Part shown: positions 4,365 to 22,951 of the stretch, in pieces
How the letters are laid out: each line of letters begins with the position of its first letter
How positions within the stretch are numbered: position 1 is the stretch's first letter
Assembly: GCA_029856045.1 (NCBI GenBank)
Contig: JAHQWG010000025.1
Location: forward strand, 1-64,000
Length of the DNA: 64,000 bases
Origin: Promethearchaeia archaeon
GTDB taxonomy: Archaea > Asgardarchaeota > Lokiarchaeia > Sigyniarchaeales > SOKP01
Reading direction: 5' to 3'
Position numbers and translations under genes: made by a program
Notes under the pieces: generated by a model
What the model saw: the letters and a program-made list of their open reading frames with translations, nothing else
Told to the model about the DNA's origin: nothing
The model's database searches: none

Positions 4365-4394
4365 GTTAAATTTCATAATAGGAGAAATTTAAGA

Positions 4395-5105: not shown

Positions 5106-5204
5106 AAGAAAAAATAAAATTTTAATTAAATTTTTAAACTGAAATTGATTTTTATTTTATGAAAGGACTTAACCGACAATCCGATTTGTATAATTTGAGA
5201 ATGG

Positions 5205-5735: not shown

Positions 5736-5934
5736 ATTTAAATCAACTCTATAAGCTTATAAAATATTGATATGTAGGATATAAACTAAACTCAATAAAA
5801 AATCGAAAGATAATATGATTAGGACTAATAATAAAGAATCTCTGATAATTTGACGATAAATGATTAAAATAAGAAGAAGAGCAATTGGAAAAAAAAATAA
5901 ATATTGAATTAAAAGAAAAAGAGGATGGAAAAAT

Positions 5935-6543
5935 TTAAAAAAAAGAACTAGATTTCTTATTGAATTCTTTTTCTCCCAAATCATCTCGTATAATATTCAT
6001 AGCAGAAGTAATTGACACTCTCCATTTGACTGCAATCTTGCGTATAGGATCTGGATTTTCGGAGCGACCGTCTTTAATTATGCTCTCTCGTTGCTCATCG
6101 GATATACTATCTTCAGACTTTGGAAACCTTTCTTCATAACCTTTCTCTGTTAAAACCTTATGGGAGATCTTTATTAATGTATAGAGGGATACCTTTAAAT
6201 TCATTTCTTCTAGTTTTTCACGAATTTTATTCTGTGAAATCTTTGTATATCTGATATAATATTTAAGGAGATTATTTAGATTTTTATTTTCATTAAATTT
6301 ATCTATTCTTTTTACTAAATTATCTTTCTCTTCTTTAGTTAGTGCATCATTTTCTTTACTTTTAATAAATTTAATAAATTTCTTAGTAAAATGAGTACCC
6401 TTATAGGCAACACCATCATGTTTCTTTATTATTTCTTGCAATTTTATTAATGCAGGGCTCGATGGCAGATATTTATCTTTATCGAAATCCCCATATACCT
6501 TTTCTATTATAAAACCAACCTTAGTAAACAACTGTTTGGTCAT
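5935..6543 (-). pseudogene. Probable chimeric remnant: SAM-methyltransferase C-terminal tail joined to an HTH-containing fragment
   Basis: N-terminus LFTKVGFIIEKVYGDFDKDKYLPSSPALI resembles the last strands of class I methyltransferases; C-terminus has the HTH-like PIRKIAVKWRVSITSAMNII. Confidence 0.45.
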
Positions 6544-6554
6544 TAAAAATAATT

Positions 6555-7436
6555 CTAAACGCTTTGTATTTCTCTTTGAGATATGTTAGTTTCAATATCC
6601 AACAATTTTCTTTCTATATCAATAGAATTATTCCATAATTGTCCAAAAAAATTTTTCAAAACATAAATCAAAGGTTTGCAATTCGTCCAAAATCCAGCTT
6701 TTTCCCGATGGTTTTTATTTTTTGGTGTAATTCCAAAAAAAATTTCCTTATTATCTATAATTATCAAAAAATGTATTAAATTTGGATCAATATTAACATG
6801 ATGAATATTACTTTTATGATGCACACTTAAAATTTCTTTATTTAAAAATCTCATTATTTTAAAATTTTCTTCTGTAATACAAGTTAATAACCTAATTTTT
6901 ATAATATCTTTATTTATAGCATCTTTAATACTGATAACTGAAGGATTTGAACGAGGGCCATTAATTTTCGTTAAAATAGCCAATATCTCTGTGTCAGCAT
7001 TTTCAATCATTTGTAAAAATTTGGAAAAGAGAATATATTCACCTTGGATGATTGTAAACTTTTCTGAATCATATTCATAATTTTTACTCTTAATACTTGA
7101 CCATAAACTGATCGAATCATTTCTTTTATCTTCTAAAAATCTTACTTCTCCTTTCTTTGTTTTAATAAGTAAATCCAAAACTTTTTCAAATGGAATTGCC
7201 GTAAATCGCATTGGGGATTCCATACTTACCTCTATTATTCCGTAATTTTGCAGATTCTTGATAATATGATAAACCTGAGCTTTATGCAAATTCATTTTTC
7301 TAGATATATCAATTGCCTTATGTGTTCCATTCTTAGCAAGAAAAATGTACACTTTTGATTCTAATTCCGTTAAACCTGTGTCTTTAAGAGCCTCTACAAG
7401 CCATATTTTTTCTGAGAGGATTTCATTATCTAGCAT
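6555..7436 (-). CDS. TrmB-family sugar-sensing transcriptional regulator
   Basis: GLTELESKVYIFL...A.DISR....KAQVY.IIKNL...GII......PMRF.A.P wHTH, plus a C-terminal effector domain (IIIDNKE, WTN). Confidence 0.88.
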   Translation of the reverse strand: MLDNEILSEKIWLVEALKDTGLTELESKVYIFLAKNGTHKAIDISRKMNLHKAQVYHIIKNLQNYGIIEVSMESPMRFTAIPFEKVLDLLIKTKKGEVRFLEDKRNDSISLWSSIKSKNYEYDSEKFTIIQGEYILFSKFLQMIENADTEILAILTKINGPRSNPSVISIKDAINKDIIKIRLLTCITEENFKIMRFLNKEILSVHHKSNIHHVNIDPNLIHFLIIIDNKEIFFGITPKNKNHREKAGFWTNCKPLIYVLKNFFGQLWNNSIDIERKLLDIETNISQREIQSV

Positions 7437-7558
7437 TATTATCTGATTAGTTTTGTTATTTCATGTAAAATTGAACATGCATTAATTATAAGTGACCTTG
7501 TGACCATTTAAATATTTTCATTCATAATATTTAAATTACTTTTATTATAATAGTAATT

Positions 7559-8173
7559 ATGCCTAAAGCTTTTTCAGATAGAGAGAAAAAGATTATAAAA
7601 AAGAAATTACTCGAAAAAGGTAAGGAGTATTTTAGAATATTTGGATTAAAAAAAACAAATATAGGAGAACTAACAAAATCTATAGGCATAGCCAAAGGAA
7701 CATTCTATAATTTTTATAAATCGAAAGAAAAACTATTTTTAGATATATTAGAAAAAGTTGAACAAGATCATGTTGATTTCCTGTCTAAAGAAATCACTAA
7801 TATTGATAAATCTCCAAAGGATATATTTAAATTTTTTCTTAAATATCGATATAATGTTATTGAAACTGAACCTATAATAAAGATGCTCCTTACTAGTGAT
7901 GAAATGGATTACCTTTTTAGAATATTACCAGAAACCACACGTATAAACTTTATTCGTAGAAAAATAGATAATGAATATATGATACAATTTAACAAAAAAT
8001 GGCAAGAAGATGGTTTGTTAAAAAAAATTGATCCTGAAATTTTGGCTAACTTATATCGAATATTTGCTGTAATTAGTATAGGTAAAGAACATGTTGGTAA
8101 GTCGAAGATTAATGAAACAATTGATTTACTTATAGATATTTTAGCAGACTACTTAATAATTCCGTCAGAATGA
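7559..8173 (+). CDS. TetR/AcrR-family transcriptional regulator
   Basis: F..FGLKKTNIGELTKSIGIAKGTFYNFYKSKEKLF. Confidence 0.9.
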   Translation: MPKAFSDREKKIIKKKLLEKGKEYFRIFGLKKTNIGELTKSIGIAKGTFYNFYKSKEKLFLDILEKVEQDHVDFLSKEITNIDKSPKDIFKFFLKYRYNVIETEPIIKMLLTSDEMDYLFRILPETTRINFIRRKIDNEYMIQFNKKWQEDGLLKKIDPEILANLYRIFAVISIGKEHVGKSKINETIDLLIDILADYLIIPSE

Positions 8174-8321
8174 TTTTTTAGGCTATTTTAATCCAAACTA
8201 TGCTAGAAGTACTTAATATTTTACGTATTATTGTGAAAATAATCAATCACTTTTCTTCAAGTTTAAAATTCTAAAATTTTTATTGATAGAACTTTTAATA
8301 TTTCTTTAGAATTATGCTATT

Positions 8322-8345
8322 AGTAAGTAACAATTGTGAATGAAT
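8322..8345. promoter_or_regulatory. Operator copy 1 (AGTAAGTAACAATTGTGAATGAAT), then AA and TATA-like TTTTTATTA
   Basis: One of six copies of a 24-bp imperfect palindrome; upstream of 8394. Confidence 0.8.
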
Positions 8346-8393
8346 AATTTTTATTAGTGAAACGATAATAATTTTAAAATAGTTGTTAAAAAA

Positions 8394-9524
8394 ATGCCGA
8401 AAGAATTAGTATTTTTAGGACCTAGAAAAGTTGGATTTAGAGAATACGAGGAGCCTCCTTTAAAGGACACCGAAGTAAGAATTAAGACCCTATATTCTGG
8501 GATTAGTAGTGGTACAGAATTAGCTATTTATAGAGGGCAAGCACCCATGTTTAAAAGAACCATTAAAGATGGTTTGTTTGCTGATGGAGAACCTATATAT
8601 CAATATCCATTGGTTTATGGATATGAAGAATATGGAGAGGTAATTGAAATAGGAAAGAAGGTGGAAGAAGAAAACAAGTATAAAGTTGGATCTTTCGTGG
8701 CAGCATCATATGGACACAGAGAAACAGGTGTTGTTGATGCCTTTGAATCAATTAAAGAATCACTAAATTTCTATGGATTAATCGAAATTCCGCCCCCACG
8801 AAAAATGCCCCCATCTGTTAAAGATAAAAAATTAGCTAAAAGAATGATGGCAGTTTCATTAGGAGGATTATCTTATGATGGGATAGTCATGTCAGGCATC
8901 CAAGCAGGTGAATCCGCAGTAATTTTTGGTCAAGGACAAATTGGACTTTGTTGTACTTTAAGTTGTAAACAAATTGGTGTCAATCCAGTAATAGCAGTTG
9001 ACGTGGTTGATGAGAGGCTTGAACTTGCGAAAGAATTTGGAGCAGATTATGTTTTTAATCCAAATAAGTGCAATGTAGCAGAAGAAGTAAGAAAAAAATT
9101 AAAAACAAGATATGCCCTTCCCGGTGCTGATGTAGTTTTCGACGCCTCAGGATCATATAAAGCGCTTAAAGATGCTATTAGATGTGGAGCTCCTGGATAT
9201 GGAAAAGTTATTGCAATTGGCTTCTATAAAGGACCTGCTACCGAACTTGATTTGGGAGAGGAGTTTCACCACGGTCTTGGTGCAAGTACAATCATATCTG
9301 TTGGACCATATGCTCGTCAACTATATCGAGCAACGGCTCCTGGAAGAAAATGGGATATGAAAAGAGTAGGGATGGCCTATTTCCGTTTAACTTTAGGGAA
9401 AGAAGATTTAATTGATAAATTGGTAAGTCATACTTTTAAATTTGAAGATGCGTTGAAAGCATATGAAATTTTAGACAAACATCCCGAGAATTGTCTTAAA
9501 ATGCTCTTAACTTTTCAAGAATAA
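8394..9524 (+). CDS. MDR-superfamily (zinc-binding alcohol dehydrogenase-like) sugar dehydrogenase
   Basis: SGISSGTE, GYE..GEV.E.G, GQGQIG Rossmann motif, GAD.VFDASG. Confidence 0.85.
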   Translation: MPKELVFLGPRKVGFREYEEPPLKDTEVRIKTLYSGISSGTELAIYRGQAPMFKRTIKDGLFADGEPIYQYPLVYGYEEYGEVIEIGKKVEEENKYKVGSFVAASYGHRETGVVDAFESIKESLNFYGLIEIPPPRKMPPSVKDKKLAKRMMAVSLGGLSYDGIVMSGIQAGESAVIFGQGQIGLCCTLSCKQIGVNPVIAVDVVDERLELAKEFGADYVFNPNKCNVAEEVRKKLKTRYALPGADVVFDASGSYKALKDAIRCGAPGYGKVIAIGFYKGPATELDLGEEFHHGLGASTIISVGPYARQLYRATAPGRKWDMKRVGMAYFRLTLGKEDLIDKLVSHTFKFEDALKAYEILDKHPENCLKMLLTFQE

Positions 9525-9550
9525 TATCATTTTTTATTAATATAATACTA

Positions 9551-9561
9551 TTTTTTTTTTT
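9551..9561 (+). terminator. Archaeal oligo-T terminator candidate
   Basis: T11 run shortly after the stop of 8394..9524. Confidence 0.45.
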
Positions 9562-9619
9562 AATTTATTTAGCTTTTGAGAAATTCAAACAATCATCATT
9601 ATTTAATTCTCTAGTAATA

Positions 9620-9643
9620 AGTCAGTTATAATTGTTACTAACT
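9620..9643. promoter_or_regulatory. Operator copy 2 (AGTCAGTTATAATTGTTACTAACT), then AA and TCTTTAAAT
   Basis: Same palindrome family and TATA spacing; upstream of the MFS gene. Confidence 0.72.
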
Positions 9644-9733
9644 AATCTTTAAATGTAGACTTATTATAATTAAATTGTTTAGAATTTGTATTAATTTAGT
9701 TCTATCTACAAAAAAATATTTAAAGAAGACAGG

Positions 9734-11167
9734 TTGAATATTATGAGTAACGAAGATAAGTCCAAAAAAAATGTAGCTACTCTTGACGTACCATCGCACT
9801 CACTAAAAGTTATGGCTTCTTTTTCGGTTGCTAGTTTAGGATTAGGAATCATTACATCTGCGATTGGAATGCAACTGTTATATTTCTATGAAGTTCTCTT
9901 GCAAATGCCAGCAGCATTATTCATCATAGGTAACGGAATTTATGTGATTTGGGATGCTATCGATGATCCTTTGCTAGGATATATGTCTGATCGCCCAAAG
10001 CGCTTTTGGGGAAAATGGGGTAAGCGATATCCTTGGGTAATGGTATCTTTTGCTCCAGTTTGTATAACCTTTGCCTTGCTTTATGGGCCTCCATTCAGTG
10101 ATGAAATGCTTTTACTTGCTTGGTTAATTGTTAACCTCTTTATATTTGATACTTTTCGATCGTTGTGGAACATTAATTTTAGTGCACTCTTATATGAAAA
10201 ATATATCACTGATGATGAACGGACTAAGATATCTGGATTTAACAACATTTTCCGGCAACTTGGTGGAGTTTTTGCTATGATAGTGCCTGGATTTTTGATT
10301 AATTATATGGATCCTAGCACTTTTTTAAATTATGGAATTTTTGTTTCAATATTATCTGCTATATGTGTGATCATAGCCATACCAGGAATGAAAGAAGATA
10401 AATGGATGAAAGAAAGAGCTGTTTTATTAGCTCAAAGTGGTGTGTATAGAGGATCAACTCTCGTCGATTTCTTTTCAACAATGAAAAGAGGATTTAAAAC
10501 ACGAAACTTCAGTGTGTTTTTAATAGTCGGTACATTATTTTTTCTTATGTCAATAATGCAACAAGCTTCAATACCTTATTATATTTCTTATATTTTAGTA
10601 TTGGGTGCTGAAGCTCAGCTTCTAATCTATATGCCATATCTCATTATTGTAATAGCAGTGACTCCATTCGCAGTAAAAATTGCTAAAAAAATTAATCCAG
10701 TAAAAATGTTTAAGTATTTATTATTTACTTATGGAATAGGGGCATTCCTACTGTTAATTCCAACGGATTTGATTAGTGCTATAATAGTACAATCCATAAT
10801 TGCATTTATATCTGGATTTACAATAATCGTCCTAACCCCTGTAATTGGGATGATGCTTGATGAGGCCACCTTATCCTTTAAAGCACATAAAGAAGGTATT
10901 CTACTCGGAATCTATATTTTTTTCCAGGCTTTAGCTGGATTCGCTAGTACTTTGATTATTTTGTTAGTTCATTCGCTTACAGGGTTTGATCCTACACTAG
11001 GTGCATCACAAACTGCTTTAGCTTTTTTCGGCCTCCGATTACAAATCGCAATTATCCCCGGGATTATAATGATGATAGCAGGGATAATTTTCATGTTTGG
11101 TTGGACACTTACAGATGAAAAAATGGTAGAAATTCGAGCAAAGTTGAAAGAGTTAAAACTTAGGTAG
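9734..11167 (+). CDS. MFS transporter, glycoside-pentoside-hexuronide (MelB/GPH) cation symporter family
   Basis: WDAIDDPLLGYMSDR...WGKRYPW; about 12 TM segments. Confidence 0.9.
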   Translation: MNIMSNEDKSKKNVATLDVPSHSLKVMASFSVASLGLGIITSAIGMQLLYFYEVLLQMPAALFIIGNGIYVIWDAIDDPLLGYMSDRPKRFWGKWGKRYPWVMVSFAPVCITFALLYGPPFSDEMLLLAWLIVNLFIFDTFRSLWNINFSALLYEKYITDDERTKISGFNNIFRQLGGVFAMIVPGFLINYMDPSTFLNYGIFVSILSAICVIIAIPGMKEDKWMKERAVLLAQSGVYRGSTLVDFFSTMKRGFKTRNFSVFLIVGTLFFLMSIMQQASIPYYISYILVLGAEAQLLIYMPYLIIVIAVTPFAVKIAKKINPVKMFKYLLFTYGIGAFLLLIPTDLISAIIVQSIIAFISGFTIIVLTPVIGMMLDEATLSFKAHKEGILLGIYIFFQALAGFASTLIILLVHSLTGFDPTLGASQTALAFFGLRLQIAIIPGIIMMIAGIIFMFGWTLTDEKMVEIRAKLKELKLR

Positions 11168-11195
11168 GTATTAATCTCAATAATTAATTTATTAC

Positions 11196-11208
11196 TTTTT
11201 TTTTTTTT
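11196..11208 (+). terminator. Oligo-T terminator candidate between convergent genes
   Basis: T13 run after the MFS stop codon. Confidence 0.45.
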
Positions 11209-11240
11209 ATTTTAATTCTAAAATATTTTTTTTAATGATT

Positions 11241-12485
11241 CTATAAGTCAAAATGCTTATTAATGTCATTTTCATAGAAGGAGGTTTTCCCTTTCTCAAT
11301 ATCATCAACCAATACCGAACGATCTAAATATGAGGATTCAATAATGGCATAAGCAATAGCTAAATCTTTTAATCCTTCTTTCCCACTGATTTCCATTTCA
11401 TTCCCTTCAAGAATGGCATTTAAAAAATCTAAAGTCTCCAATGCTGCTGCGTCAGTTAGACCGTAAGGAAAAAATTTGTCTTTTATTCCTTGGGATGCAT
11501 TTTCATCAAATAATTGATTAACACTTGTTTTTGTTCCATCATCTAAATTGACAATATTCGATTTTATTGACCCTTTAGTCCCATATATAGTGGGAAACAT
11601 CATTATTGGCGGACCATGTAAAGCCCATGAATATGATATTTGACCTAGAGCTCCACTTTTGAATTTTAAAATAGCCAAGAAGGTATCATCAACTTCACTT
11701 TTAATTCTTTGAATAATTTTTCCTGTCTTATCGCGATTTACCCTAGTATCTTCAAAAATTCTAACAATTCCTTGAACAGATTCAACCTCTCCACAATAAC
11801 TTCTCAGAAGACTGAGGAAATGTACACCCATGTCTAATGTTACTCCACCTCCAGCCTGTAGTTTTAAATGACGCCAAGGGGTTTCTGCAACAATCTTATC
11901 GGGAGACCACCAACCTCCTAATCCGGCTTGAAATACTAACTGAATGTTACCAATACATCCTTGGTCAATTACCCACTTGGTTTTTCTCATTCCGGGTATG
12001 AAATGTATGCCTTCGCCTACACCTAATACTTTTTTAGCCTTTTCTGCCGCTTCTACCATTTTCCGTGCTGCTTTCACAGTAATAGCTATTGGTTTTTCCA
12101 CCATAACATGCTTATCTTCATATAAACTATCAATTGTGATAAAATGATGAGTATCAACGCTAGTATAGATATCCACGGCATCAATATCGGCTTCTTTAAG
12201 CATATTTTTATAATTATCATAAAGTTCAATATCAATGTCACTTTTTTGAAAATCTGAAACATATATGTGAGGTGCATGAAGTGGATCTCCTGGAGGACCA
12301 ACCGGGTCTTTTGGTTGTGACCCCTCACTACGCTTCCTAAATCTTAAAGCATTTTCAATATGCTTATCACATAATGCTCTAATCTCTACTTCAAAGCCCT
12401 TTTCCATTAATGCTTTGTATCCATGTAAATGGATAGGCATGATTCTACCGCACCCTACCAATCCTACTTTAATTTTTTTTGACAT
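11241..12485 (-). CDS. Gfo/Idh/MocA family NAD(P)-dependent oxidoreductase
   Basis: VGLVGCGRI, KHVMVEKP, GGG..LDMGVH. Confidence 0.9.
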   Translation of the reverse strand: MSKKIKVGLVGCGRIMPIHLHGYKALMEKGFEVEIRALCDKHIENALRFRKRSEGSQPKDPVGPPGDPLHAPHIYVSDFQKSDIDIELYDNYKNMLKEADIDAVDIYTSVDTHHFITIDSLYEDKHVMVEKPIAITVKAARKMVEAAEKAKKVLGVGEGIHFIPGMRKTKWVIDQGCIGNIQLVFQAGLGGWWSPDKIVAETPWRHLKLQAGGGVTLDMGVHFLSLLRSYCGEVESVQGIVRIFEDTRVNRDKTGKIIQRIKSEVDDTFLAILKFKSGALGQISYSWALHGPPIMMFPTIYGTKGSIKSNIVNLDDGTKTSVNQLFDENASQGIKDKFFPYGLTDAAALETLDFLNAILEGNEMEISGKEGLKDLAIAYAIIESSYLDRSVLVDDIEKGKTSFYENDINKHFDL

Positions 12486-12538
12486 TTTCTCCTACTTTTG
12501 GATTATTATTATTATGGTCTAATAAATATGCAAGCTTC

Positions 12539-13447
12539 CTACATCATTTTTTCCAAAAATTCATGAGTCCACTTTATGTCATTTATTCTTTGCTCTGTGG
12601 TTGCCATTTCTCTTTCAATTATTAGGGGGCCATTATAACCAATTTCATTTAGTTTTTGAATGAACTGCTTGGCTCCAACTTGACCCTTTCCAAATGGAAC
12701 TTCTTTGACCATGTGAGGTTTTCTTTCCCTTGCTTCAACTTCTGGAAAAAGCCCATCTTTACAATGAACTCCTTCTATGTAATCCTTGAGTAATTCCAAG
12801 GATGCGATAAGATCTATTTCAATGCCATTCATCCAACCATAATATAGAAGATTAGCTGGATCAAAATTAATTTTTAAATTCTTTGCTCCAACATCTTCAA
12901 TAAAACGTACTAAAGTTTCAGGGGTTTCTTGACCTGTTTCACATAACCAAGATTGATTATTTTTATCAAGAAATTCTGTTATTTTTTGCATGGCATCAAC
13001 TAGTCCTTTATATATAATTCTATGATAAAGATCAGATGTGTTTTCAGGTATATAACCAACATGTTGAGCAAGTTTATCAACTCCTAAATCTTTAGCGAAA
13101 TCCGATGTCATAAAGACATGCTTTATTCTCTCTTCACGGTAAATAGGATTAATTAATCCAATTGTTTCTTTTTTTACATAGTTAGTTCCTTTCCAGTGTA
13201 CAAATATAGCAGATATTTTAATTCCAGTTTCTTTTAATTTTTTAATTAATTTCTCCTTTTTTTCATCTATAAAATGTTCAATTGGAGGAGAACCAAGGTG
13301 CATAGTTTTAAATCCTAAAGAATCAACCCATTCAATTGCTTCTAAAGCATCCTTCCCCTCCCAGGTCATAACACCAATATCAAAAGCTCCCATCTTAAGT
13401 GTCGCAACCAAATATGAGAATGTTATGTTATTATTTTCAAATTTCAT
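12539..13447 (-). CDS. Xylose-isomerase-like TIM barrel (sugar phosphate isomerase/epimerase family)
   Basis: ETGQE, NFDPAN, HCKD, G.G.V, LIIERE metal-ligand pattern. Confidence 0.88.
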   Translation of the reverse strand: MKFENNNITFSYLVATLKMGAFDIGVMTWEGKDALEAIEWVDSLGFKTMHLGSPPIEHFIDEKKEKLIKKLKETGIKISAIFVHWKGTNYVKKETIGLINPIYREERIKHVFMTSDFAKDLGVDKLAQHVGYIPENTSDLYHRIIYKGLVDAMQKITEFLDKNNQSWLCETGQETPETLVRFIEDVGAKNLKINFDPANLLYYGWMNGIEIDLIASLELLKDYIEGVHCKDGLFPEVEARERKPHMVKEVPFGKGQVGAKQFIQKLNEIGYNGPLIIEREMATTEQRINDIKWTHEFLEKMM

Positions 13448-13525
13448 TTACCAATTGCTATTGAAATCTTACTATACTTGATACTTATTTGACTATTTTA
13501 CTAAAGATTTGTATTAACATCATAA

Positions 13526-14344
13526 TTAAATTAAACTCCTCACTATAGCTAACAAATTCCTTATACCTTCTCTTTGATCATATTTACCCATAGGTGGAAG
13601 TTCTAAAGAATAAAAACCGTCAAAACCCGTTTTTTTCACAATATCCATGAACGGTTTCAAGAATTTTTCACCTACTTCATTTGGTACTGTTTTTGCATGT
13701 ATAATGCTTGCATATTTACTCATTTTTCTTATACCCTCTTCTCTTATTTCAGCAGGAAATAATATGGCATTTCCTAGATCAGGTAACGTTTTCATAATAT
13801 CTGGACCTACCTCCTCGATAATCTTAATAATATTATCAGGATTTGTGGTCATACCAGGACCGTGATTTTCTATGAGTAGTTTCACACCAATTTCCCTTGC
13901 AATAACTGCGAGTTCTTTATAACCATAAATGGCTCTTTGAAGAGCATCTTCAGTCGAATCAATCTTAGCCCTAGGTAAAGGAGAATCTGGATTTACTCTT
14001 ATGGATGGTGATCCTAAATATTTGGCAATCGAAAACCATCTTTTAATTATTTCAAATTCCTCCTTCCTTTTCTCTGGATTTGGTTCTGAAGTTGTCCCAA
14101 TGTCAACACATATATTAGTAACATTTACATTTGAATCCTTTAAAGATTCTTTCATTTTTTCAATAAAATCCATTTCTACTGATGGAAATTGCATTTGGCA
14201 AAGCTCAATATTGTTTAATCCTATTTCCTCAACACAGATCTTGGGAAACTCAAGGATTGTGATCTTATCACCCCCGTATTGAGGAAAAAGATAATTTGGC
14301 AACTCACGAGAAAGGCTAAAAGAATTTACACATATTTTCTCCAC
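13526..14344 (-). CDS. Xylose-isomerase-like TIM barrel (sugar phosphate isomerase/epimerase family)
   Basis: IENHG, PDLGN, IHAK, GFYSLE. Confidence 0.88.
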   Translation of the reverse strand: MEKICVNSFSLSRELPNYLFPQYGGDKITILEFPKICVEEIGLNNIELCQMQFPSVEMDFIEKMKESLKDSNVNVTNICVDIGTTSEPNPEKRKEEFEIIKRWFSIAKYLGSPSIRVNPDSPLPRAKIDSTEDALQRAIYGYKELAVIAREIGVKLLIENHGPGMTTNPDNIIKIIEEVGPDIMKTLPDLGNAILFPAEIREEGIRKMSKYASIIHAKTVPNEVGEKFLKPFMDIVKKTGFDGFYSLELPPMGKYDQREGIRNLLAIVRSLI

Positions 14345-14486
14345 TTTAAAATCACTCTTAAATTTTTTAATATAATAATTATATTTTTTCTGAAAAAGTT
14401 TTATTAGATGCTTTTTAATGAAAATTATTTTTTATTAGAGATACTCACAGATAGGAAAAATATTACGTGGCAAATTTATAATAATT

Positions 14487-14510
14487 ATTTAGTAACAATT
14501 GTGAATAATC
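14487..14510. promoter_or_regulatory. Operator copy 3 (ATTTAGTAACAATTGTGAATAATC), between divergent units, with TATA-like boxes on both sides
   Basis: Plus side AA+TTTTTATAA; minus side AA+TTATTATAA. Confidence 0.78.
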
Positions 14511-14616
14511 AATTTTTATAAGTAATATTTCTAAATAATTTTTATAAATCAATATCAATTTTATAACCTAAGTTTTAAAACTTATAATAATTATTTAAGA
14601 GGAGGTTGAGAATTAA

Positions 14617-15729
14617 TTGACCAGAATTGTTAAATTAGCACAAGTTGGGTGTGGAAGTATAGCTCAGAGAATGATAATGAATAGGCTAAAAGCTCCCAGT
14701 GTTAAAGAAAAGGTTGAATTGATAGCTACTATGGATGTAGTTTCTGAAAGAGCTAAAGCTTGTATGGAAAAGTTTGGGGCGAAAGAATGGTATGACGATT
14801 ATGATAAGATGTTATTAAATGCAGATATCGATGCTGTAACTATTGCTACACCAATAGGATTGCATTATGAACAAGTGATTAAAGCAATATATGCAGAAAA
14901 GCATGTTCATTGTCATAAAACTATTACTACTAATGCTAGAGAAGCTACTGATATAATTGAAGTTGCTAAACAAAAAAATATTAAAGTTGTCGCTTCTCCT
15001 GGAACAAGCGTTATGAGTCCTATAGTTACCAAGATAAAACAGGTTTTAGAAAAGGGCACCATAGGAAAGGTTTATTGGGCTCAATTGGGAAGGCAATGGG
15101 AAGGGCATGAATATGAACCTTTCAGGAAATTTGGTAATATTTTAACCGATGTAGATCCTTCATGGTATTATAAAAAAGGTGGTGGACCTATGTATGATAT
15201 GGGTGTGTATGAACTTACCGAGCTCACGGCAATTTTTGGTCCTGCTAAAAAAGTATCAGCCATGTCAGGTATAGGCCTTAGAGAAAGGAAAATTAAAGAT
15301 AAAGCGATAGATGTAGAAATGGATGATAATACAATGCTTCTTCTTGATTTTGGTAATTCAATGTTCGCTTATATATTTGCAACTTTTTCAGCACTGGCGG
15401 ATGAGGGTCCTGTACCTCCCTTCAGTATTTCTGGAAGTGAAGGAGGAATGAGACTAGGTAAATTCAAGAGTGAGAGATATAAATCAATATTGGATATATG
15501 GAGTCCTTCTTTACCCGAAAAACATGAACAGGAAATTATTTCAGGTTACAGGGAAGATGCATTCTTCGATGTTATGCATCTTGTTGATTGCGTAAAAAAT
15601 GATGAAAAACCGATTGTAATGGATAATATTGAGAGCATGCAAATTGCCAGACATGTAATAGAGATTATTGAGAAAGGTTACATTGCTGCTAAGACAGGAA
15701 AAACACAAGAATTAGAAACAACTTTCTAG
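14617..15729 (+). CDS. Gfo/Idh/MocA family oxidoreductase
   Basis: VGCGSIA, DAVTIATP..LH, KHV.CHK, GGGPMYDMGVY; GGAGG upstream of the TTG start. Confidence 0.88.
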   Translation: MTRIVKLAQVGCGSIAQRMIMNRLKAPSVKEKVELIATMDVVSERAKACMEKFGAKEWYDDYDKMLLNADIDAVTIATPIGLHYEQVIKAIYAEKHVHCHKTITTNAREATDIIEVAKQKNIKVVASPGTSVMSPIVTKIKQVLEKGTIGKVYWAQLGRQWEGHEYEPFRKFGNILTDVDPSWYYKKGGGPMYDMGVYELTELTAIFGPAKKVSAMSGIGLRERKIKDKAIDVEMDDNTMLLLDFGNSMFAYIFATFSALADEGPVPPFSISGSEGGMRLGKFKSERYKSILDIWSPSLPEKHEQEIISGYREDAFFDVMHLVDCVKNDEKPIVMDNIESMQIARHVIEIIEKGYIAAKTGKTQELETTF

Positions 15730-15772
15730 TAGAAATATTACTGATAATTCTCAAATGGTAAAGTACAAATTA

Positions 15773-15796
15773 AGTCATAAATATTTGTGACTGAAT
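15773..15796. promoter_or_regulatory. Operator copy 4 (AGTCATAAATATTTGTGACTGAAT), then AA and TTTTTATAA
   Basis: Same family and spacing; upstream of 15842. Confidence 0.75.
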
Positions 15797-15841
15797 AATT
15801 TTTATAAATCCAATAGCAATTATATAACATAGGTTTTCGCA

Positions 15842-16654
15842 ATGAAATTAGGATTAAGAGTTAATGCTTTTGATTTAGGAATTTGGTTAGATAAGAATGC
15901 AATGCCACCTAAAGATGTATGGGAACCGTCCGTAAAAAGAGCAGCTGATCTTGGGTTTGATGGTGTTGAATTATGTGTGTGGTTTCCACTTTCAGAATGG
16001 TTAAATGAAGAAGATATAACTAAAATGATAGAAACTGCTAAAAAACATAATATTGAAATTGCTACTATATCTGCTGATTGGTGTCACAGTTATAGTGCTT
16101 ACCACACAAGCTTGAGTGATTGGTTAAGATGTGGCAACGGAATTGAATTATTTAAAGGTGAAATAAAATTAGCAGCGAAACTCGGAGCAAAATCAATGTT
16201 ATGGCATTTGGGTAGAGCTAAGGGTACGATGGAAGAACTTAAAAAGATTTTTTATTATTTTGCAGAAGAGGCAGAAAAACAAAAAGTCAAAATTGGCATA
16301 GAAAGCAGTTTTTGGCCAATTATTGGCCTTGGTGATCAATATATTCTAAAAGAATTATTAGATGAGATTAATAGTGAATATTTTGGAGTATATATTCATG
16401 GTGGTCGAAAAGCTGTTGAAATAATGGAAAAAAGAAGCGTGGGATTTCATTTTTATGTAATGCCTGGATTTCCCACACTTGAAGAGAAATATGATTATAA
16501 AGCATTGTTTGATACGTTTAAAAAATATTATGATTATTATATCGTTTTTGAACCCATTTCTCATTATACAAAACCTTACTCTGAATACTTATCCGATAAA
16601 TCTTTGGAAAAAGCTAAAATAGATTTTGATAGAATATTCACTAAATATCGGTAG
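15842..16654 (+). CDS. Divergent xylose-isomerase-like TIM barrel protein
   Basis: AADLGFDGVEL, AAKLGAK, KIGIE, FE near the C-terminus. Confidence 0.78.
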   Translation: MKLGLRVNAFDLGIWLDKNAMPPKDVWEPSVKRAADLGFDGVELCVWFPLSEWLNEEDITKMIETAKKHNIEIATISADWCHSYSAYHTSLSDWLRCGNGIELFKGEIKLAAKLGAKSMLWHLGRAKGTMEELKKIFYYFAEEAEKQKVKIGIESSFWPIIGLGDQYILKELLDEINSEYFGVYIHGGRKAVEIMEKRSVGFHFYVMPGFPTLEEKYDYKALFDTFKKYYDYYIVFEPISHYTKPYSEYLSDKSLEKAKIDFDRIFTKYR

Positions 16655-16687
16655 AAATATAAATATAAAAAAAAAAAGTAATCTTTT

Positions 16688-16951
16688 ATGAGTGAGATTG
16701 ATAAGATAGTCAAAATATTCGACGAAAGCATTGAAGAGGTGCAACCATTTCACGAAGAAGGTGCTGATTATATAAGAAAATTCCAAGAAGTCATAAAAGA
16801 TTTAGATGCTGAAGGTAATAAGGAAAAAGCTAAAGAATTATTTCATATAATTTTTGATCCCATGGTTGAATATGAAAGTTATGTTCCCACATCTGTAGCA
16901 CATTTTAAAAAGATTAAAGAAATTCTTATAAATAAGGGAATTGAATTATAA
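16688..16951 (+). CDS. Small acidic helical protein of unknown function, paralog A
   Basis: 39/82 ungapped identities with 20062..20310, including EYExYVPTSVAHF. Confidence 0.8.
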   Translation: MSEIDKIVKIFDESIEEVQPFHEEGADYIRKFQEVIKDLDAEGNKEKAKELFHIIFDPMVEYESYVPTSVAHFKKIKEILINKGIEL

Positions 16952-16989
16952 CCTAACTATTTTTTTTCTTTTTTTTAAAAGTATTAAAC

Positions 16990-17520
16990 ATGAAAGTTTT
17001 AAATTCAAATAATAGAACTCATGCAAAATCTACAATCTGGCCGCTTGTTTTTAATTGGATTAATGAATGTTTTGAATCTTCAAGCTTAATTTTAGATTTA
17101 GGTTCTGGAACTCACATCTGGTATATGGATAAATCAAGAATGATCCGAATTGATCATTTCAAACAAAAAATTGAAACTAATCATGAAAGTTTTATCCTTA
17201 ATGACTTAAATCGTGGGATTCCCTTAAATAATAAAACAGTTGATTATGCTGTGGCAGTTGAGGTCATAGAGCATTTAGAGAATCCACTTTTCTTTTTACA
17301 GGAAATTAGACGAGTCGTTAGGAAGAAAGCAATTATAACATGCCCAGATGGAATTGAAAGCGGGTGGTATACTCCTTGGACTTATACTTTCTTTGGTCAT
17401 ATTTCCATTCTTTCAAGTTGGTTATTAGAAAATCATTTTAGACGTGTGAAACTAGAAGTTTTAAAAAAAATGCATGATTCTGAAAAGAAAGAGATTGTCC
17501 TATATATGATAAAGATATAA
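16990..17520 (+). CDS. Class I SAM-dependent methyltransferase
   Basis: ILDLGSG, D....EVIEHLENP...L.EI.RV. Confidence 0.82.
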   Translation: MKVLNSNNRTHAKSTIWPLVFNWINECFESSSLILDLGSGTHIWYMDKSRMIRIDHFKQKIETNHESFILNDLNRGIPLNNKTVDYAVAVEVIEHLENPLFFLQEIRRVVRKKAIITCPDGIESGWYTPWTYTFFGHISILSSWLLENHFRRVKLEVLKKMHDSEKKEIVLYMIKI

Positions 17521-17522
17521 AT

Positions 17523-17546
17523 TATGAGTAACAATTGTGACTGAAT
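17523..17546. promoter_or_regulatory. Operator copy 5 (TATGAGTAACAATTGTGACTGAAT), then AA and TTCTTATAA
   Basis: Same family and spacing; upstream of 17629. Confidence 0.8.
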
Positions 17547-17628
17547 AATTCTTATAAATTAGCACATCTAAGTATATTTTACTAAATAATATCTTTATGG
17601 TTAAAAAATTAAGTGAAGGAAAAAAGAC

Positions 17629-18396
17629 ATGGAAAAAAAAGAAAAGTTACACGTTGTTTTTATCGGGGCTCATCCTGATGATGAAGGATTTTGTTCTGGT
17701 ACTCTTGCTAAGTACGCAAAAAAAGGACACAAAGTAACTATAGTATCTGCAACAAAAGGAGGTAGAGGACATTATGAAATTCCAACTGAAAAATTAAGAG
17801 AAATTAGAATGAATGAATTACAAAACGTTGCAAGAATATTAGGTACTGAAGTGATGTTTTTAGATTATGTTGATGCCGACATCCCTCCTCCAAGTGATAT
17901 GAAAGATGATTTTGTGAATTTATTACGGAAGTTAAGACCCAATATCGTAATTACATGGCATCCCTATACTGATAGAGATGATCATAGAAATATTGGGCAA
18001 GTTGTATATGATGCTTGTTTCAAATCAAGTCTCCCTCTTATAATGACGGATGATTCCTTTATCCCCCTCCCTAGAATTTATTTTATTGGTGAACCTGTGT
18101 ATCCTTCAGAGCCAGACGTTTATGTGGATATTACTAGCGTGATTAATATTAAAATTGAAGCTGTCAAAGAACATAAGAGCCAACTTGAAGAATGGATACC
18201 ATGGTCTTATGAGATGGGAACTGGAGGGAAAATCAAGCCAAACTTAGATCAAATAATAAAATATTTTGTTAAGGAACGAGGACGTAAATTTGGAATTGCT
18301 TCAGGTGTAAAATATGCAGAGGAATTCAGGATAATTGGGGCAGGAATGCCTAAAATAAAAGCTAAACAATTGCTACCTTATACAATTACTTTCTGA
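17629..18396 (+). CDS. PIG-L/LmbE family N-acetylated sugar deacetylase
   Basis: GAHPDDE, G.LAKY...G..V, T.G, R..E, DH, YVDIT, K.EA...HKSQ, YAEEF. Confidence 0.9.
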   Translation: MEKKEKLHVVFIGAHPDDEGFCSGTLAKYAKKGHKVTIVSATKGGRGHYEIPTEKLREIRMNELQNVARILGTEVMFLDYVDADIPPPSDMKDDFVNLLRKLRPNIVITWHPYTDRDDHRNIGQVVYDACFKSSLPLIMTDDSFIPLPRIYFIGEPVYPSEPDVYVDITSVINIKIEAVKEHKSQLEEWIPWSYEMGTGGKIKPNLDQIIKYFVKERGRKFGIASGVKYAEEFRIIGAGMPKIKAKQLLPYTITF

Positions 18397-18600
18397 ATTT
18401 ACTTCAATTCATTATTTTTTTATTTGAATAATTTATTTATCTTTTTGGAAAAGGTTTTATCATGGGAGGGGATTAAACATTCATTAATTATTAAACCTTA
18501 TACAAATAAAAAAATTTTATAAATTCATGAATATTTCAATAGAATTTCTTATTATTTTTAAACAAATTTCCTTAAATTAATTGTCAACTTAGAAGAGAAG

Positions 18601-19863
18601 ATGAAGAATTATAAAATACGAGACGATTTATGGGAAAGAATTCGTAGTAAGATGGATGAGATAAAAATTGTAGACACTCACGAACATTTAGGTCGTGCAT
18701 TTCCAATATTTACTATAAGCAAAAAATACAACATGAATTTGATAACATTTTTAGCACATTCTTATCTTTATGGCGATTTAATTTCTTCAGGAATGAAAAT
18801 GATTCCTCCAGAAAAAATGAGTTGGCAACAACTCAAGCCATTTCTAGAAAACGTGAAAAATTCAATCTATTTCAGATATTTACTGAGAGCATTAAAGGAT
18901 TTTTATGGACTTAAGGAAGATAATATAAATGATAATAATTGGAAAGCAATATCTTATCTAATCAGTAAAAAAACTGAAAACCATATTCAATGGTCCTTGG
19001 AAGTGCTTGATTTAATGAATATTCACCGCATGATTCTTGATATAAGTAAGGGATGTATAGTGAATACTGAAATGATTAATGACGACCGACTAGTTCAAGT
19101 TGTAAAAATGGATGATTTTATCATGGGGGGGTTAAATATTGTTAAAAAATTTACTAATAACTCGGTAGATAAGCTTGACGATTATTTGGAAGTACTTGAT
19201 ATGGCTTTCGAAATAGCAAAAATGAATAAAGTAATAGGAGTTAAATGTGCAATAGGATATAATAGAATCATCAGCTTTGATTCTATAGAGAAATCTGAAG
19301 CTCAAAAAATCTTTAGTAATGGTATTAGAAATGTAAGTTTAGCAGATAGAAAAAAATTCCAAGATTATATGATGCATATTGTTTGTGAAAGATCCATTAA
19401 ACATGATCTTCCTATCCAAGTTCATACAGGATTGCAAGCAGGAAATTTTAATGATATAACAAATGCTAAACCTACACATCTAACTAATTTATTTAAAAAG
19501 TATAAAAAAGCACGTTTTGTTTTATTCCATGGAAGTTATCCTTACATACAAGAAGCTGGAGTTTTAGCAAAATACTTTCCCAATGTATATCTTGATGCGT
19601 GCTGGTTATCTCATATCTCTCCATCATCATATAGACGTGGATTGGATGAATGGCTCGACATTGTACCATCTAATAAAATTTTTGCCTGGGGTGGTGATCA
19701 TGAAATAATAGAACATAGCTACGCTTCATTGATGCTTGCGAAAGATCTTATTACTGATGTCCTAGTTAATAAAATAATATCGGGAGATTCCAGTGAAAAA
19801 ATCGCGATTTCGCTAATGGAGAAAATTCTTCATGGAAATTCCATTAACTTTTATGGTCTATAA
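18601..19863 (+). CDS. Amidohydrolase-fold metalloenzyme (glucuronate isomerase-like)
   Basis: IVDTHEH, K (carbamate position), QVHTG, LFHG.YP, PNVYLD, WGGD. Confidence 0.82.
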   Translation: MKNYKIRDDLWERIRSKMDEIKIVDTHEHLGRAFPIFTISKKYNMNLITFLAHSYLYGDLISSGMKMIPPEKMSWQQLKPFLENVKNSIYFRYLLRALKDFYGLKEDNINDNNWKAISYLISKKTENHIQWSLEVLDLMNIHRMILDISKGCIVNTEMINDDRLVQVVKMDDFIMGGLNIVKKFTNNSVDKLDDYLEVLDMAFEIAKMNKVIGVKCAIGYNRIISFDSIEKSEAQKIFSNGIRNVSLADRKKFQDYMMHIVCERSIKHDLPIQVHTGLQAGNFNDITNAKPTHLTNLFKKYKKARFVLFHGSYPYIQEAGVLAKYFPNVYLDACWLSHISPSSYRRGLDEWLDIVPSNKIFAWGGDHEIIEHSYASLMLAKDLITDVLVNKIISGDSSEKIAISLMEKILHGNSINFYGL

Positions 19864-19992
19864 ATCTCTATTTTTACAAATTATCAATTATACTTAAAAA
19901 AATTAAATTTTAGATTATATAATTTAAGTGTTAATTGATGATCCCAAGGGACTAAATTCAATTGTTCTTAAGTAATAAGAAATGCGTTTTGT

Positions 19993-20016
19993 AGTCAGTA
20001 ACATTTGTGAATGAAT
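19993..20016. promoter_or_regulatory. Operator copy 6 (AGTCAGTAACATTTGTGAATGAAT), then AG and CTTTTTTAAA
   Basis: Same family and spacing; upstream of 20062. Confidence 0.8.
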
Positions 20017-20061
20017 AGCTTTTTTAAATGTAGAGATAATTATTTAAATTGAGTTATAATT

Positions 20062-20310
20062 ATGAGTGAAATAGAAGAATATATAAAAAAACTTAATGAA
20101 AGTGCAGAAGAAGTAGAACCATTAAGCCCTGAAGGAGGAGATCGAATAAGAGACATTATAGAACTGGTTAAAAATATAAATGAAGGAGATAATAAGAAAA
20201 AAGCTTTAGATTTAGTAATGGAGATACTTGAAAGGATGGAGGAATATGAAACTTATGTTCCCACCTCTGTCGCACACTTTAGATTTCTTAAGGAGGAATT
20301 CTCTAAATAA
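20062..20310 (+). CDS. Small acidic helical protein of unknown function, paralog B
   Basis: Paralog of 16688..16951; has its own operator/promoter and downstream T-runs. Confidence 0.8.
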   Translation: MSEIEEYIKKLNESAEEVEPLSPEGGDRIRDIIELVKNINEGDNKKKALDLVMEILERMEEYETYVPTSVAHFRFLKEEFSK

Positions 20311-20405
20311 AATTTTTAAATCTTCTTTTTTTTAATGCTCCCTTTTTTTTATTGTTTAGAATAGGATTATCTCAGTGAACAAAAAATTTAAGGAAATATT
20401 TGTAT

Positions 20406-20528
20406 CTATAGATTTTCTCGAATAAAATTCCAAATTACATTGTTAACTTTTTCCGGAGCTTCAATTGTTAATCCATGACTTAATCCTGGAAGAATTTCTA
20501 CTTTTGAATTTGGGATTCTTTCATCACT
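20406..20528 (-). pseudogene. C-terminal fragment of an alpha/beta hydrolase
   Basis: Manual translation SDERIPNSKVEILPGLSHGLTIEAPEKVNNVIWNFIRENL* (catalytic His region only). Confidence 0.7.
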
Positions 20529-20875
20529 TGACTTTGAAATAAAGGTATTGGTAGTTCCATGAGTGCTCTCTATAGCATTCAACTTAGTAGGTTTAATCCA
20601 AGCGACAATTGCGAACTCATTATTAAAGGGGCTATTATACGATCCAAAAACATCATTAAGAATATCTCCGAAATAGTTACTCGAATTGAAAGATAAGGTT
20701 TCTTCTTTATATTTTAGGGAGTCATATGTCTTTATACAAAATTCTCATCAAGATACGCTTTAAATACTAATGCTGGAGGGAGCGAAGGATACCCGATAAT
20801 TAATTCTTCTATATATCCTTCAAAGGAAGAGGTTAACACGAAACTCAGGAAACATTCATTAACATGAATATGGTA
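20529..20875 (-). pseudogene. Frameshifted LamG/concanavalin-A-like domain fragment
   Basis: FEGYIEELII..LVFKAYLDEN / frameshift / KTYDS...LSFN..NYFGDILNDVFG...EFAIVAWIKP; no intact start. Confidence 0.5.
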
Positions 20876-21932
20876 CCTTGAGATGAATTATTTGTTTTTT
20901 TGCCTAATTTAACACACTTTATTTCTTTTATCAAGACTTTTAACCACCCCGATTTTAAGCGATAAAAAAGTATAGTGTAGGGCAAAGGCGTTAGAGATTA
21001 CATAGTAATAAACAGGAGGAAGGACTTCTTTTAACCTTAGATTTCGCAGTCCTTTATTTCATATGTCGGTATTTTGAATTACAACAGAGTAAAATATGAG
21101 AGTTGGATATTTTAATATTTACTAAAGTATTTGATTATTTTAAGCTAAAATTAACAAGTGTGAATTCTTTAATCCTTTTTTCACTTGGAATTGGTTTTGT
21201 TTTAACTATTCATATACGATATATGGGTTGATAATCAGTATAATTAATTGATATTTATTTTATGTAGAATGCTTTAACTTTTTTTATTCTTAGATTCATT
21301 GATTGGACTTGAATTTGCTAATGATTTTTTAATTGTTGGAGCATATGCTGTAAAGAAAATTTATAAGACTATTAAATCTCTCTAAATTTTTTAAAAATAT
21401 ATTATATAGTTAAATAAATCTTGTCTAAAATTTATTTCCAAAGAATTACTTGAATGAAATAACAAATCTCTCTTCCCTCATATCGAGAAGGTTTTTAATA
21501 TTACTGAAGATTGAATCTACAGCTGGTTCATTTTTACCGTTAACATTAAGTAAAATTAATGTTAATTATGTTCCTTTACCTTAATGTTTAATCGTCGATT
21601 GTTTACTAAGAGTTGTAACATCCAAAATAACGAGGTTGGAAAATTATTTTCAAAATTTTATATATTTTAGAAGGTCTTATGACGAAATATGCACATAATT
21701 TTATAAATTCATGAAAATATAATAGGATGAACCGTGTTAAAAAATGCAATCCATGAAGAATAACAATGTTTCAATCCATTTCACAAATTCAAATAACAAT
21801 TTTCATCTTAAATGAAATTTTAATATCTTTAAGATTACTAACTATAAGTTTAGCCAGTTTTTTTATTATTCTATACTACACAAAAAGTAAGAAATGGAAT
21901 TATTTATTTAAGTATGCATTAACTGTTGCTCT

Positions 21933-22568: not shown

Positions 22569-22816
22569 AAAAAATCAAAAACTAGAAAAAAAGGGTTTAA
22601 TTACAATTTAGATGCATTTTTGTCGAAAATTTAAATAAAGAAACAGAAGAAGAGGTAAAATTTGAAGAAAAAGATTTAAAAGATTTGGAAAAATCTAAGA
22701 CTTCCCAATTAGGGTAATGCATCAAACATTTCGATAATAAATTCTTTATTTTCTACTTTTTTTATCGTTCCAGTTACGACAATATTCTCAGCCTTCTTTT
22801 CTGATAATAGAATTCC

Positions 22817-22951
22817 ATGCAAATAAACATGATGGATGCTGAAATGTTAAGAGATGGTCAAAAACATCCTTAGAATTATAAAAACTTGCTTGTAAGAGTC
22901 ACAGGGTACAATGCTTACTTCCACACCATCGGTAGAGAGCGATCAAAATAA
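22817..22951 (+). pseudogene. Glycyl-radical enzyme C-terminal fragment with an in-frame stop
   Basis: MQINMMDAEMLRDGQKHP*NYKNLLVRVTGYNAYF; RV(T)GY radical motif; TAG at 22871. Confidence 0.85.

Follow-up and report, generated by a model that had tools for sequence, protein, structure and literature searches.

The levoglucosan pathway (LgdA/B1/B2/C) proceeds by oxidation, β-elimination, hydration and reduction, and its gene cluster holds neither a glycoside hydrolase (GH) nor a kinase (PMC7676230). In the glucuronide-cleaving P2B11 cluster, a pair of oxidoreductase genes lies between two genes for sugar-phosphate isomerases (bioRxiv 10.1101/2024.03.25.586180). Here we analysed a locus of comparable layout in positions 1–64,000 (forward strand; hereafter the window) of contig JAHQWG010000025.1 from a Promethearchaeia archaeon of the lineage SOKP01 (GCA_029856045.1). 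The stretch from 5108 to 23031 is very probably a co-regulated, acquired island for sugar or glycoside conversion. It encodes two Gfo/Idh/MocA oxidoreductases (Gfo1 and Gfo2), three xylose-isomerase-like TIM barrels (TIM1, TIM2 and TIM3), a medium-chain dehydrogenase/reductase (MDR), a GPH symporter, a PIG-L deacetylase, a uronate-isomerase-like Amidohydro_2 protein (AH), a methyltransferase, two small proteins (sm87 and sm82) and two regulators.

Comparison with the levoglucosan Lgd system of Bacillus smithii and Paenarthrobacter (PMC7676230, PMC10066097) revealed that both have two Gfo genes and dissimilar TIM barrels with a transporter and a regulator adjacent, that both lack GH and kinase genes, and that both are strain-specific, the B. 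smithii type strain being without the cluster. The island differs in its archaeal host, in having a GPH symporter instead of an ATP-binding cassette (ABC) transporter, and in its additional MDR, third TIM barrel, PIG-L deacetylase and uronate-isomerase-like protein. The gut clusters AL1-5/BT2156-2160 and P2B11 (bioRxiv 10.1101/2024.03.25.586180) likewise combine an oxidoreductase pair with a TIM-barrel lyase/hydratase, and the glucuronide activity of P2B11 fits the uronate-isomerase-like gene of the island. In contrast, the BT/AL enzymes work in the periplasm and rely on a DUF1080 protein, for which the island has no counterpart, and similarity to them is marginal (8tdi, 43 bits to Gfo1; 8tcs and 8tcd, about 15 bits against the profile of TIM1). 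Escherichia coli YcjQ-YcjR-YcjS (product names as in RefSeq), which converts guloside to glucoside via 3-keto intermediates, resembles the island in joining an MDR without zinc ligands to a TIM barrel and a Gfo/Idh/MocA protein, but the ycj locus also has phosphorylases, a β-phosphoglucomutase and an ABC transporter. In Thermotoga maritima, IolG-IolM-IolN-IolO provides a Gfo protein, an MDR and a TIM epimerase that feed uronate and 2-keto-3-deoxygluconate (KDG) metabolism, where for the function of IolO we follow Rodionova 2013 in the form in which PMC12632266 cites it; the island gave no IolN match in the NCBIfam scans run, and the transporter type differs. An AHPDD zinc motif links the PIG-L protein to the archaeal (Thermococcales) chitin-pathway deacetylase Dac and to BshB, but near the PIG-L gene there is no GlmA-type glucosaminidase, glucosamine kinase or deaminase. 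The architecture is already known; what is new is the archaeal host and the combination of a YcjQ-like MDR, a uronate-isomerase-like enzyme, a Dac-like deacetylase, the near-orphan TIM3, orphan small proteins and a private operator.

Genes were called from an open reading frame (ORF) listing together with Pfam and NCBIfam profile scans (Table 1). The inventory that a sequence-only reading had given for 6555–20310 was borne out by these scans apart from two corrections. All genes it listed were found, but the methyltransferase gene had been missed, and the protein it named an amidohydrolase does carry an Amidohydro_2 domain, while its fold is specifically like that of uronate isomerase (UxaC). 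The start of TIM1 is probably Met19, at about position 13393. All 12 cluster ORFs are intact and have kept their catalytic motifs. As that reading had held, no glycoside hydrolase or kinase family was matched by any ORF of at least 80 aa in 5108–23031; nor did the island contain a glycosyltransferase, an aminotransferase, a nucleotidyltransferase or an exporter. Its catabolic or conversion character was likewise upheld, with an importer and sugar-type regulators present and glycosyltransferase and aminotransferase absent. The methyltransferase gene follows the Gfo2-TIM3-sm87 unit and precedes the PIG-L promoter, with a perfect operator copy beginning 7 nt past its stop, and its product is unrelated to the methyltransferase encoded at 27842–28441 of the window.

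We found a 16-bp palindrome, AGTNACAATTGTNACT, at six island promoters, each time placed 6-7 nt upstream of the TATA-like box, as part of a recurrent module of about 31 bp that occurs in six copies (AGTAACAATTGTGAAT-GAATAA-TTTTTATAA). A search of the whole 3.34-Mb genome returned five operator sites at no more than one mismatch, four of which lie inside 12.1 kb of the island against an expectation of 0.0036; the fifth (C27:205208) falls outside the island, inside a coding region. The fixed TATA spacing of this predicted six-site operator and its clustering far above chance support the co-regulation that had been proposed, and from its sites the island is predicted to form a private, self-contained regulon. 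A TrmB-type winged helix-turn-helix (wHTH) regulator and a palindromic operator at sugar-gene promoters are both present, and a TetR-family regulator is equally placed. One of these two regulators may bind AGTNACAATTGTNACT, which abuts the TFB recognition element and TATA box (BRE/TATA) of the six promoters.

The core of the island has the gene make-up of the four-enzyme oxidise-eliminate-hydrate-reduce modules of the Lgd/P2B11 type, for which we required two Gfo genes clustered with at least two dissimilar TIM genes: the TIM2-TIM1-Gfo1 unit faces Gfo2-TIM3 across a shared operator. Both Gfo proteins matched PF01408/PF22725 above the cut-offs, which places them in the Gfo/Idh/MocA family. Gfo1 shows canonical EKP and GGGxxxDxxxH motifs, and about 35 aa are inserted into its Rossmann domain; its best NCBIfam match is the LgdA (LevoglcsnDh) model, and its PDB matches are remote (3ezy, 76 bits; LGDH 6a3f, 72 bits; DgpA, 65 bits). 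In Gfo2, HKT replaces EKP and DxxxY replaces DxxxH. Among the aligned sequences, DxxxH is found in DgpA and DxxxY, as in Gfo2, in the sugar 3-ketoreductase KijD10. These motifs hint at a division of labour in which Gfo1 would oxidise and Gfo2 would reduce. Gfo2 also aligned with YcjS (24% identity, 73 bits). The MDR matched E. coli YcjQ, a D-guloside 3-dehydrogenase, over its full length with 28% identity (100 bits), and the Cys/His zinc ligands are missing from both proteins. Its match to IolM (NF041097) was partial, covering residues 159-286 with 89.8 bits, and did not reach the cut-off of 450.

The three TIM barrels were mutually undetectable by BLASTP and, judged by sequence, fall in subfamilies without a characterised member (3tva, 4ovx and the near-orphan TIM3). 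TIM1 belongs to the 3tva family, of metal-dependent type, with 121 bits against 3tva and 296 bits with the family profile; its nearest homologues are metagenomic proteins at 80% and 64% identity, followed by others at no more than 46%. TIM2 is 4ovx-like, and its sequence contains residues readable as an E-D-H-E metal tetrad. The TIM3 subfamily is very rare, with 23 representatives at E≤1e-3 among 1.84 billion proteins, and alignment revealed invariant E43, E154, H186, H203, D218 and E237. An AlphaFold2 (AF2) model of TIM3 (predicted local distance difference test, pLDDT, 87) gave generic fold matches to UlaE, TM0416, YcjR and DgpBC. TIM3 scored 22 bits against IolO (NF041099), short of the cut-off of 300, the island proteins scored at most 19 bits against IolE (TIGR04379; cut-off 290), and no TIM protein had detectable sequence similarity to YcjR.

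Modelling of AH (AF2, pLDDT 95) followed by Foldseek comparison returned 4i6v and 2qpx first, both proteins without assigned function, and then the uronate isomerases 1j5s, 2q6e, 2pnk, 2q01 and 3iac over the whole chain (TMq 0.72-0.80). Whole-chain TM values for UxaC/BH0493, 4i6v and 2qpx ranged from 0.72 to 0.83, whereas LigJ, ACMSD and other Amidohydro_2 proteins gave 0.33-0.42, so that in the model AH has a predicted uronate-isomerase fold distinct from those proteins. AH contains an HxH motif, which aligns with the HxH of E. coli UxaC, a conserved Tyr/Arg and a conserved Asp366, and many of its homologues carry PF02614. At the sequence level AH reached 20.7 bits against UxaC (NF002794/PF02614), where the cut-off is 387, and an hhalign probability of 13% against E. 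coli UxaC. Its nearest homologues are in a Promethearchaeia metagenome-assembled genome (MAG; 59%), then in Bathyarchaeia and Brockarchaeota (45-54%), and in bacteria the neighbours of AH-family genes include GH2, GH106 and sulfatases, a catabolic context. URO-D-like genes (MtaA/UroD family) stand beside AH-family genes in 9 of 80 loci (for example L096 5628-6719, + strand). The PIG-L protein found its best PDB matches among archaeal diacetylchitobiose deacetylases (8bgn, 88 bits) and scored 104.5 bits against BshB1 (TIGR04001), below the cut-off of 182.5. The symporter passed its Pfam cut-off, reached 100.7 bits against TIGR00792 (cut-off 231) and matched MelB with 57 bits. For sm87 only two other relatives, 82-83% identical, were found among 5.8 billion proteins, and a feature look-up in the ESM Atlas gave no usable match for sm87 or sm82.

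We then compared the locus with related genomes. A conserved protein encoded in the flank shares 94-95% identity with proteins from MAGs that bear the title Promethearchaeota archaeon, and these flanking matches agree with the earlier assignment of the host to the archaea, as a Promethearchaeota (Asgard) MAG. The host window also encodes Mre11-Rad50-HerA-type genes, an intein-bearing class II ribonucleotide reductase, SMC/ScpB and JAMM proteins; the gene for the class II (B12-dependent) reductase (41406–45176, + strand) is split by an intein that contains an HNH endonuclease domain. The island lies between a haloacid dehalogenase (HAD) hydrolase gene on the left (stop 5105) and a 138-aa gene on the right (start 23036). 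Its flanks (818–5107 and from 23032 onward) are 91-93% identical at the nucleotide level in three genomes of the same genus (G001, G002 and G004), where they are only about 60 bp apart (G004:C10 783521/783582). As the flanks adjoin each other in these three congeners, 5108–23031 is specific to the studied genome. In line with this, TIM1 was not found in the 4 same-genus and 20 same-family genomes searched, and AP_endonuc_2 genes number 9 in the studied genome but 5-6 in congeners.

The earlier proposal of horizontal acquisition therefore stands in part, because the insertion has no counterpart in the congeners by either flank comparison or TIM1 search, but a bacterial donor is not indicated, as the nearest homologues are metagenomic or archaeal and the composition is host-like. 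The GC and GC3 of island genes are inside the host range and do not signal a foreign origin; therefore, either the gain is old enough for amelioration to have occurred, or the donor was similarly AT-rich. Reading of the junction sequences revealed no direct repeat. The two island-edge fragments correspond to parts of a 1286-aa repeat-containing ORF that is intact in the congener G004 (contig C2; L086 7189–11049). They are in opposite orientation and each is single-copy in the studied genome, while congeners hold matching segments at several loci; the right fragment is 86-87% identical at the nucleotide level to the congener loci aligned and up to 90% to other copies. A mobile-element gene pair bounding the island was considered and rejected, the edge genes being fragments of that one ORF and direct repeats being absent. 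At the right junction (23001–23036, compared with L087 5522–5583), the 62-bp spacer of the congeners, with a TATA-like box upstream of the 138-aa gene, has been wholly replaced by island DNA, so the 138-aa gene must now rely on a promoter from the island edge.

Table 1. Positions of the island, its genes and its predicted operator copies in the window.
Feature	Position	Strand	Description
Genome-specific island	5108..23031	no strand	17.9 kb; replaces the ~62-bp spacer of congeners
Left island-edge fragment	5935..6543	-	homologous to an internal repeat of the 1286-aa congener ORF
TrmB-family regulator	6555..7436	-	PF01978, 57 bits; N-terminal wHTH, C-terminal 200 aa without assignment
TetR-family regulator	7559..8173	+	PF00440, 29 bits
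Operator copy 1	8326..8341		AGTAACAATTGTGAAT, 6 nt upstream of TTTTTATTA; MDR promoter
MDR dehydrogenase, YcjQ/BchC-like, without Zn ligands	8394..9524	+	PF00107
Operator copy 2	9624..9639		AGTTATAATTGTTACT; GPH symporter promoter
GPH/MFS_2-type cation symporter	9734..11167	+	PF13347, 154.5 bits
Gfo1, Gfo/Idh/MocA dehydrogenase	11241..12485	-	last gene of the TIM2-TIM1-Gfo1 unit
TIM1, xylose-isomerase-like TIM barrel	12539..13393	-	PF01261; ORF listed to 13447
TIM2, xylose-isomerase-like TIM barrel	13526..14344	-	4ovx-like
Operator copy 3	14491..14506		between the divergent TIM2-TIM1-Gfo1 and Gfo2 units; a TATA-like box on either side
Gfo2, Gfo/Idh/MocA	14617..15729	+	Pfam and motif reading
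Operator copy 4	15777..15792		left half degenerate; TIM3 promoter
TIM3, rare-subfamily TIM barrel	15842..16654	+	profile scan, alignment, AF2 model
sm87, 87-aa orphan	16688..16951	+	no Pfam match; C-terminal motif YESYVPTSVAHF
Small class-I S-adenosylmethionine (SAM) methyltransferase, 176 aa	16990..17520	+	PF08241/PF13489
Operator copy 5	17527..17542		perfect, AGTAACAATTGTGACT; PIG-L promoter
PIG-L/LmbE deacetylase	17629..18396	+	PF02585, 98 bits
AH, uronate-isomerase-like Amidohydro_2 protein	18601..19863	+	fold match of AF2 model
Operator copy 6	19997..20012		sm82 promoter
sm82, 82-aa paralog of sm87	20062..20310	+	50% identity to sm87; own operator-bearing promoter
Right island-edge fragment	21933..22568	+	homologous to the C-terminal end of the 1286-aa ORF

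The occurrence of the cluster elsewhere was examined by seeking synteny in about 160 loci from species-representative genomes, 80 of the TIM1 family and 80 of the AH family. These loci contained partial sets, namely TIM1+Gfo pairs, a few AH+MDR pairs and AH+PIG-L pairs. The AH+PIG-L pairs were judged coincidental and set aside as relatives of the cluster, as they lie in bacillithiol-like contexts. A Gfo/Idh/MocA gene was located inside the 5-kb flank in 37 of the 80 TIM1-homologue loci. A scan of species genomes with TIM1 as a single protein found nothing close, and the only match from two metagenome scans was a 4.8-kb contig with a TIM1-Gfo1 pair. The TIM1-Gfo1 order is kept on the metagenome contig L085, where Gfo1 is 60% identical; the same contig carries a URO-D-like gene (MtaA/UroD family; 2206–3216, - strand) beside TIM1-Gfo1, together with an SBP_bac_5 binding protein. 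Homologues of island proteins at 80-83% identity are present in other samples.

To account for these genes we propose a pathway in which the GPH symporter would import a glycoside that is then processed in the cytoplasm by NAD-dependent redox enzymes and metal-dependent TIM barrels. Gfo1 and/or the YcjQ-like MDR would oxidise a ring hydroxyl, most likely at C3. TIM1, TIM2 and TIM3 would release the aglycone or an adjoining sugar by β-elimination, or would hydrate or epimerise the keto-intermediate, after which the Tyr-type Gfo2 could reduce the keto-sugar back to an ordinary sugar, and the products would enter host central metabolism. This keto-intermediate route is proposed because the core layout occurs together with a glycoside-type importer, a YcjQ-like MDR and a ketoreductase-type Gfo2. 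That an imported glycoside is oxidised, eliminated, hydrated and reduced in this way, with neither hydrolysis nor phosphorylation, is a tentative reading that we consider quite possible but short of probable. Because the PIG-L protein is Dac/BshB-like and AH uronate-isomerase-like, the gene content suggests that the substrate carries an N-acetylhexosamine and/or uronate-type moiety. A more specific version, which is on balance doubtful, is that the island provides glycosidase-free cytoplasmic cleavage of an glycoside containing an N-acetylhexosamine or a uronate, such as a disaccharide of the chitin or glycosaminoglycan type. Here C3 oxidation would be followed by β-elimination, hydration and re-reduction, carried out with TIM subfamilies that have no characterised member and with AH; the two orphan proteins of about 85 aa would be new accessory or regulatory parts, and a TrmB-type sensor would act on the private operator. 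The host has nine PfkB kinases and an operon of PfkB, a 2-keto-3-deoxy-6-phosphogluconate (KDPG)/2-keto-4-hydroxyglutarate (KHG) aldolase, a β-keto acid cleavage enzyme (BKACE) and a short-chain dehydrogenase/reductase (SDR) on contig C50 (3249–6578, - strand) that is without the operator; UxuA was not found in the host genome. The C50 operon might act as a sink for keto-deoxy sugar acids, and a truncated Gfo/Idh/MocA gene is found at the start of that contig (55–402).

Several results weigh against glycoside cleavage through keto-intermediates. Neither Gfo protein reached the cut-off of levoglucosan dehydrogenase LgdA (NF052479; Gfo1 115.5 and Gfo2 64.4 bits, cut-off 650), of the BT_2158 and BT_2159 families (NF058561 and NF058563; Gfo1 42.8/30.7 and Gfo2 49.9/21.4, cut-offs 750/650) or of IolG (TIGR04380; Gfo1 109 and Gfo2 80 bits, cut-off 355), and the TIM1 profile scored the solved 3-keto-glycoside lyases/hydratases (8tcs, 8tcd and 8ro4) at 15-27 bits, no better than ketose epimerases. 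The methyltransferase, sm87 and sm82 have no role in the proposed scheme. Full-cluster synteny was kept in none of the roughly 160 loci; the only other contig that may share the cluster is a 22,057-nt metagenome contig, which seems to encode homologues of both TIM1 (64%) and AH (60%). Pairs of Gfo and TIM proteins are also used in the chemistry of inositol, anhydrofructose and other sugars. The sequence-only reading, which had raised archaeal non-hydrolytic glycoside cleavage, agrees with the architecture of two Gfo and three TIM genes, the likeness of the MDR to YcjQ and the DxxxY of Gfo2, but no curated threshold for 3-dehydrogenases or for lyases/hydratases was reached. For inositol-type catabolism, which it had also named, the classical route is not supported: IolD/B/C/J are lacking in the island and the IolG and IolE cut-offs were not attained.

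The resemblance to known conversion pathways allows other explanations of the same genes. It is conceivable, though unlikely, that the island performs a Ycj-type conversion without cleavage, in which a rare glycoside or rare sugar would be oxidised, epimerised and then reduced again by the MDR, one TIM barrel and a Gfo protein, its product passing to host glycosidases or phosphorylases encoded elsewhere. The full-length match of the MDR to YcjQ, the match of Gfo2 to YcjS and the presence of YcjR among the structural neighbours of TIM3 all point this way. However, three TIM barrels and three dehydrogenases exceed the needs of an epimerisation, the similarity to YcjR is not detectable in the sequence of any TIM protein, and the island has neither phosphorylase nor GH. 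A Thermotoga-type route from a cyclitol or keto-aldonate to a uronate appears less likely again. In such a route Gfo and MDR would oxidise the substrate, an IolO-like TIM barrel would epimerise the keto-acid to a ketouronate, AH with a reductase or dehydratase would lead to KDG, and the host PfkB-Eda pair would split it. The best NCBIfam matches of the MDR (IolM, 90 bits), TIM3 (IolO, 22) and Gfo2 (IolG, 80) fit this route. So does the best PDB match of Gfo1, 3ezy, which we take to be T. maritima IolG, as does the structural closeness of TIM3 to the ketose 3-epimerase TM0416, presumably IolO, and the uronate-isomerase fold of AH and the kinase-KDPG-aldolase operon of the host are also in keeping with it. 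Yet every score is far under its cut-off, the island has no IolN-type or IolD/B/C/J gene and the genome no UxuA, GPH symporters transport glycosides and not cyclitols, and the PIG-L protein would be left without a role.

The remaining explanations dispense with sugar breakdown or with function. Since fragments of unrelated genes stand at the island edges, close relatives are not known and a methyltransferase gene lies between operons, the island might be a recombination junkyard with decaying or silent cargo, its cluster no longer functional; this is very unlikely given the intactness of every cluster ORF and its catalytic motifs, the conservation of six operators, the 80-83% homologues in other samples and the host-like GC3. 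That the cluster builds or modifies an amino-sugar or aminocyclitol product seems highly improbable. PIG-L, MDR, Gfo and methyltransferase proteins do occur in aminoglycoside and thiol biosynthesis, and a Dehalococcoidia AH homologue lies near a bacillithiol-like PIG-L/GT4/GNAT set, but the island lacks the glycosyltransferase, aminotransferase, nucleotidyltransferase and exporter of such a cluster, has instead a GPH-type importer and a TrmB sugar regulator, and the bacterial neighbours of the AH family are catabolic.

To our knowledge, non-hydrolytic glycoside cleavage by sets of oxidoreductases and TIM barrels has been shown only in bacteria (levoglucosan, C- and O-glycosides, gut Bacteroides and a Gram-positive fosmid), a statement made without a literature search for archaeal cases. 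Gfo/Idh/MocA and xylose-isomerase-like TIM genes number 20-31 copies each in four genomes of the same order (G027, G029, G031 and G033; family f4), against 1-15 in the other families searched. In the genomes with 20-31 copies the oxidoreductase/TIM toolkit has undergone an expansion specific to this lineage of the Promethearchaeota. As these genes are common in the order, their presence in an Asgard archaeon is unsurprising by itself, and we know of none among the Promethearchaeota with a known function. The island of glycoside or sugar conversion described here is compact, with a defined predicted operator, two candidate sensors, one transporter and ten intact enzyme genes. An activity result would give a function to three protein families without a characterised member and would reveal which sugars Asgard archaea scavenge. 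Its clean insertion, absent from three congeners, is evidence that an Asgard lineage has recently gained a metabolic module.

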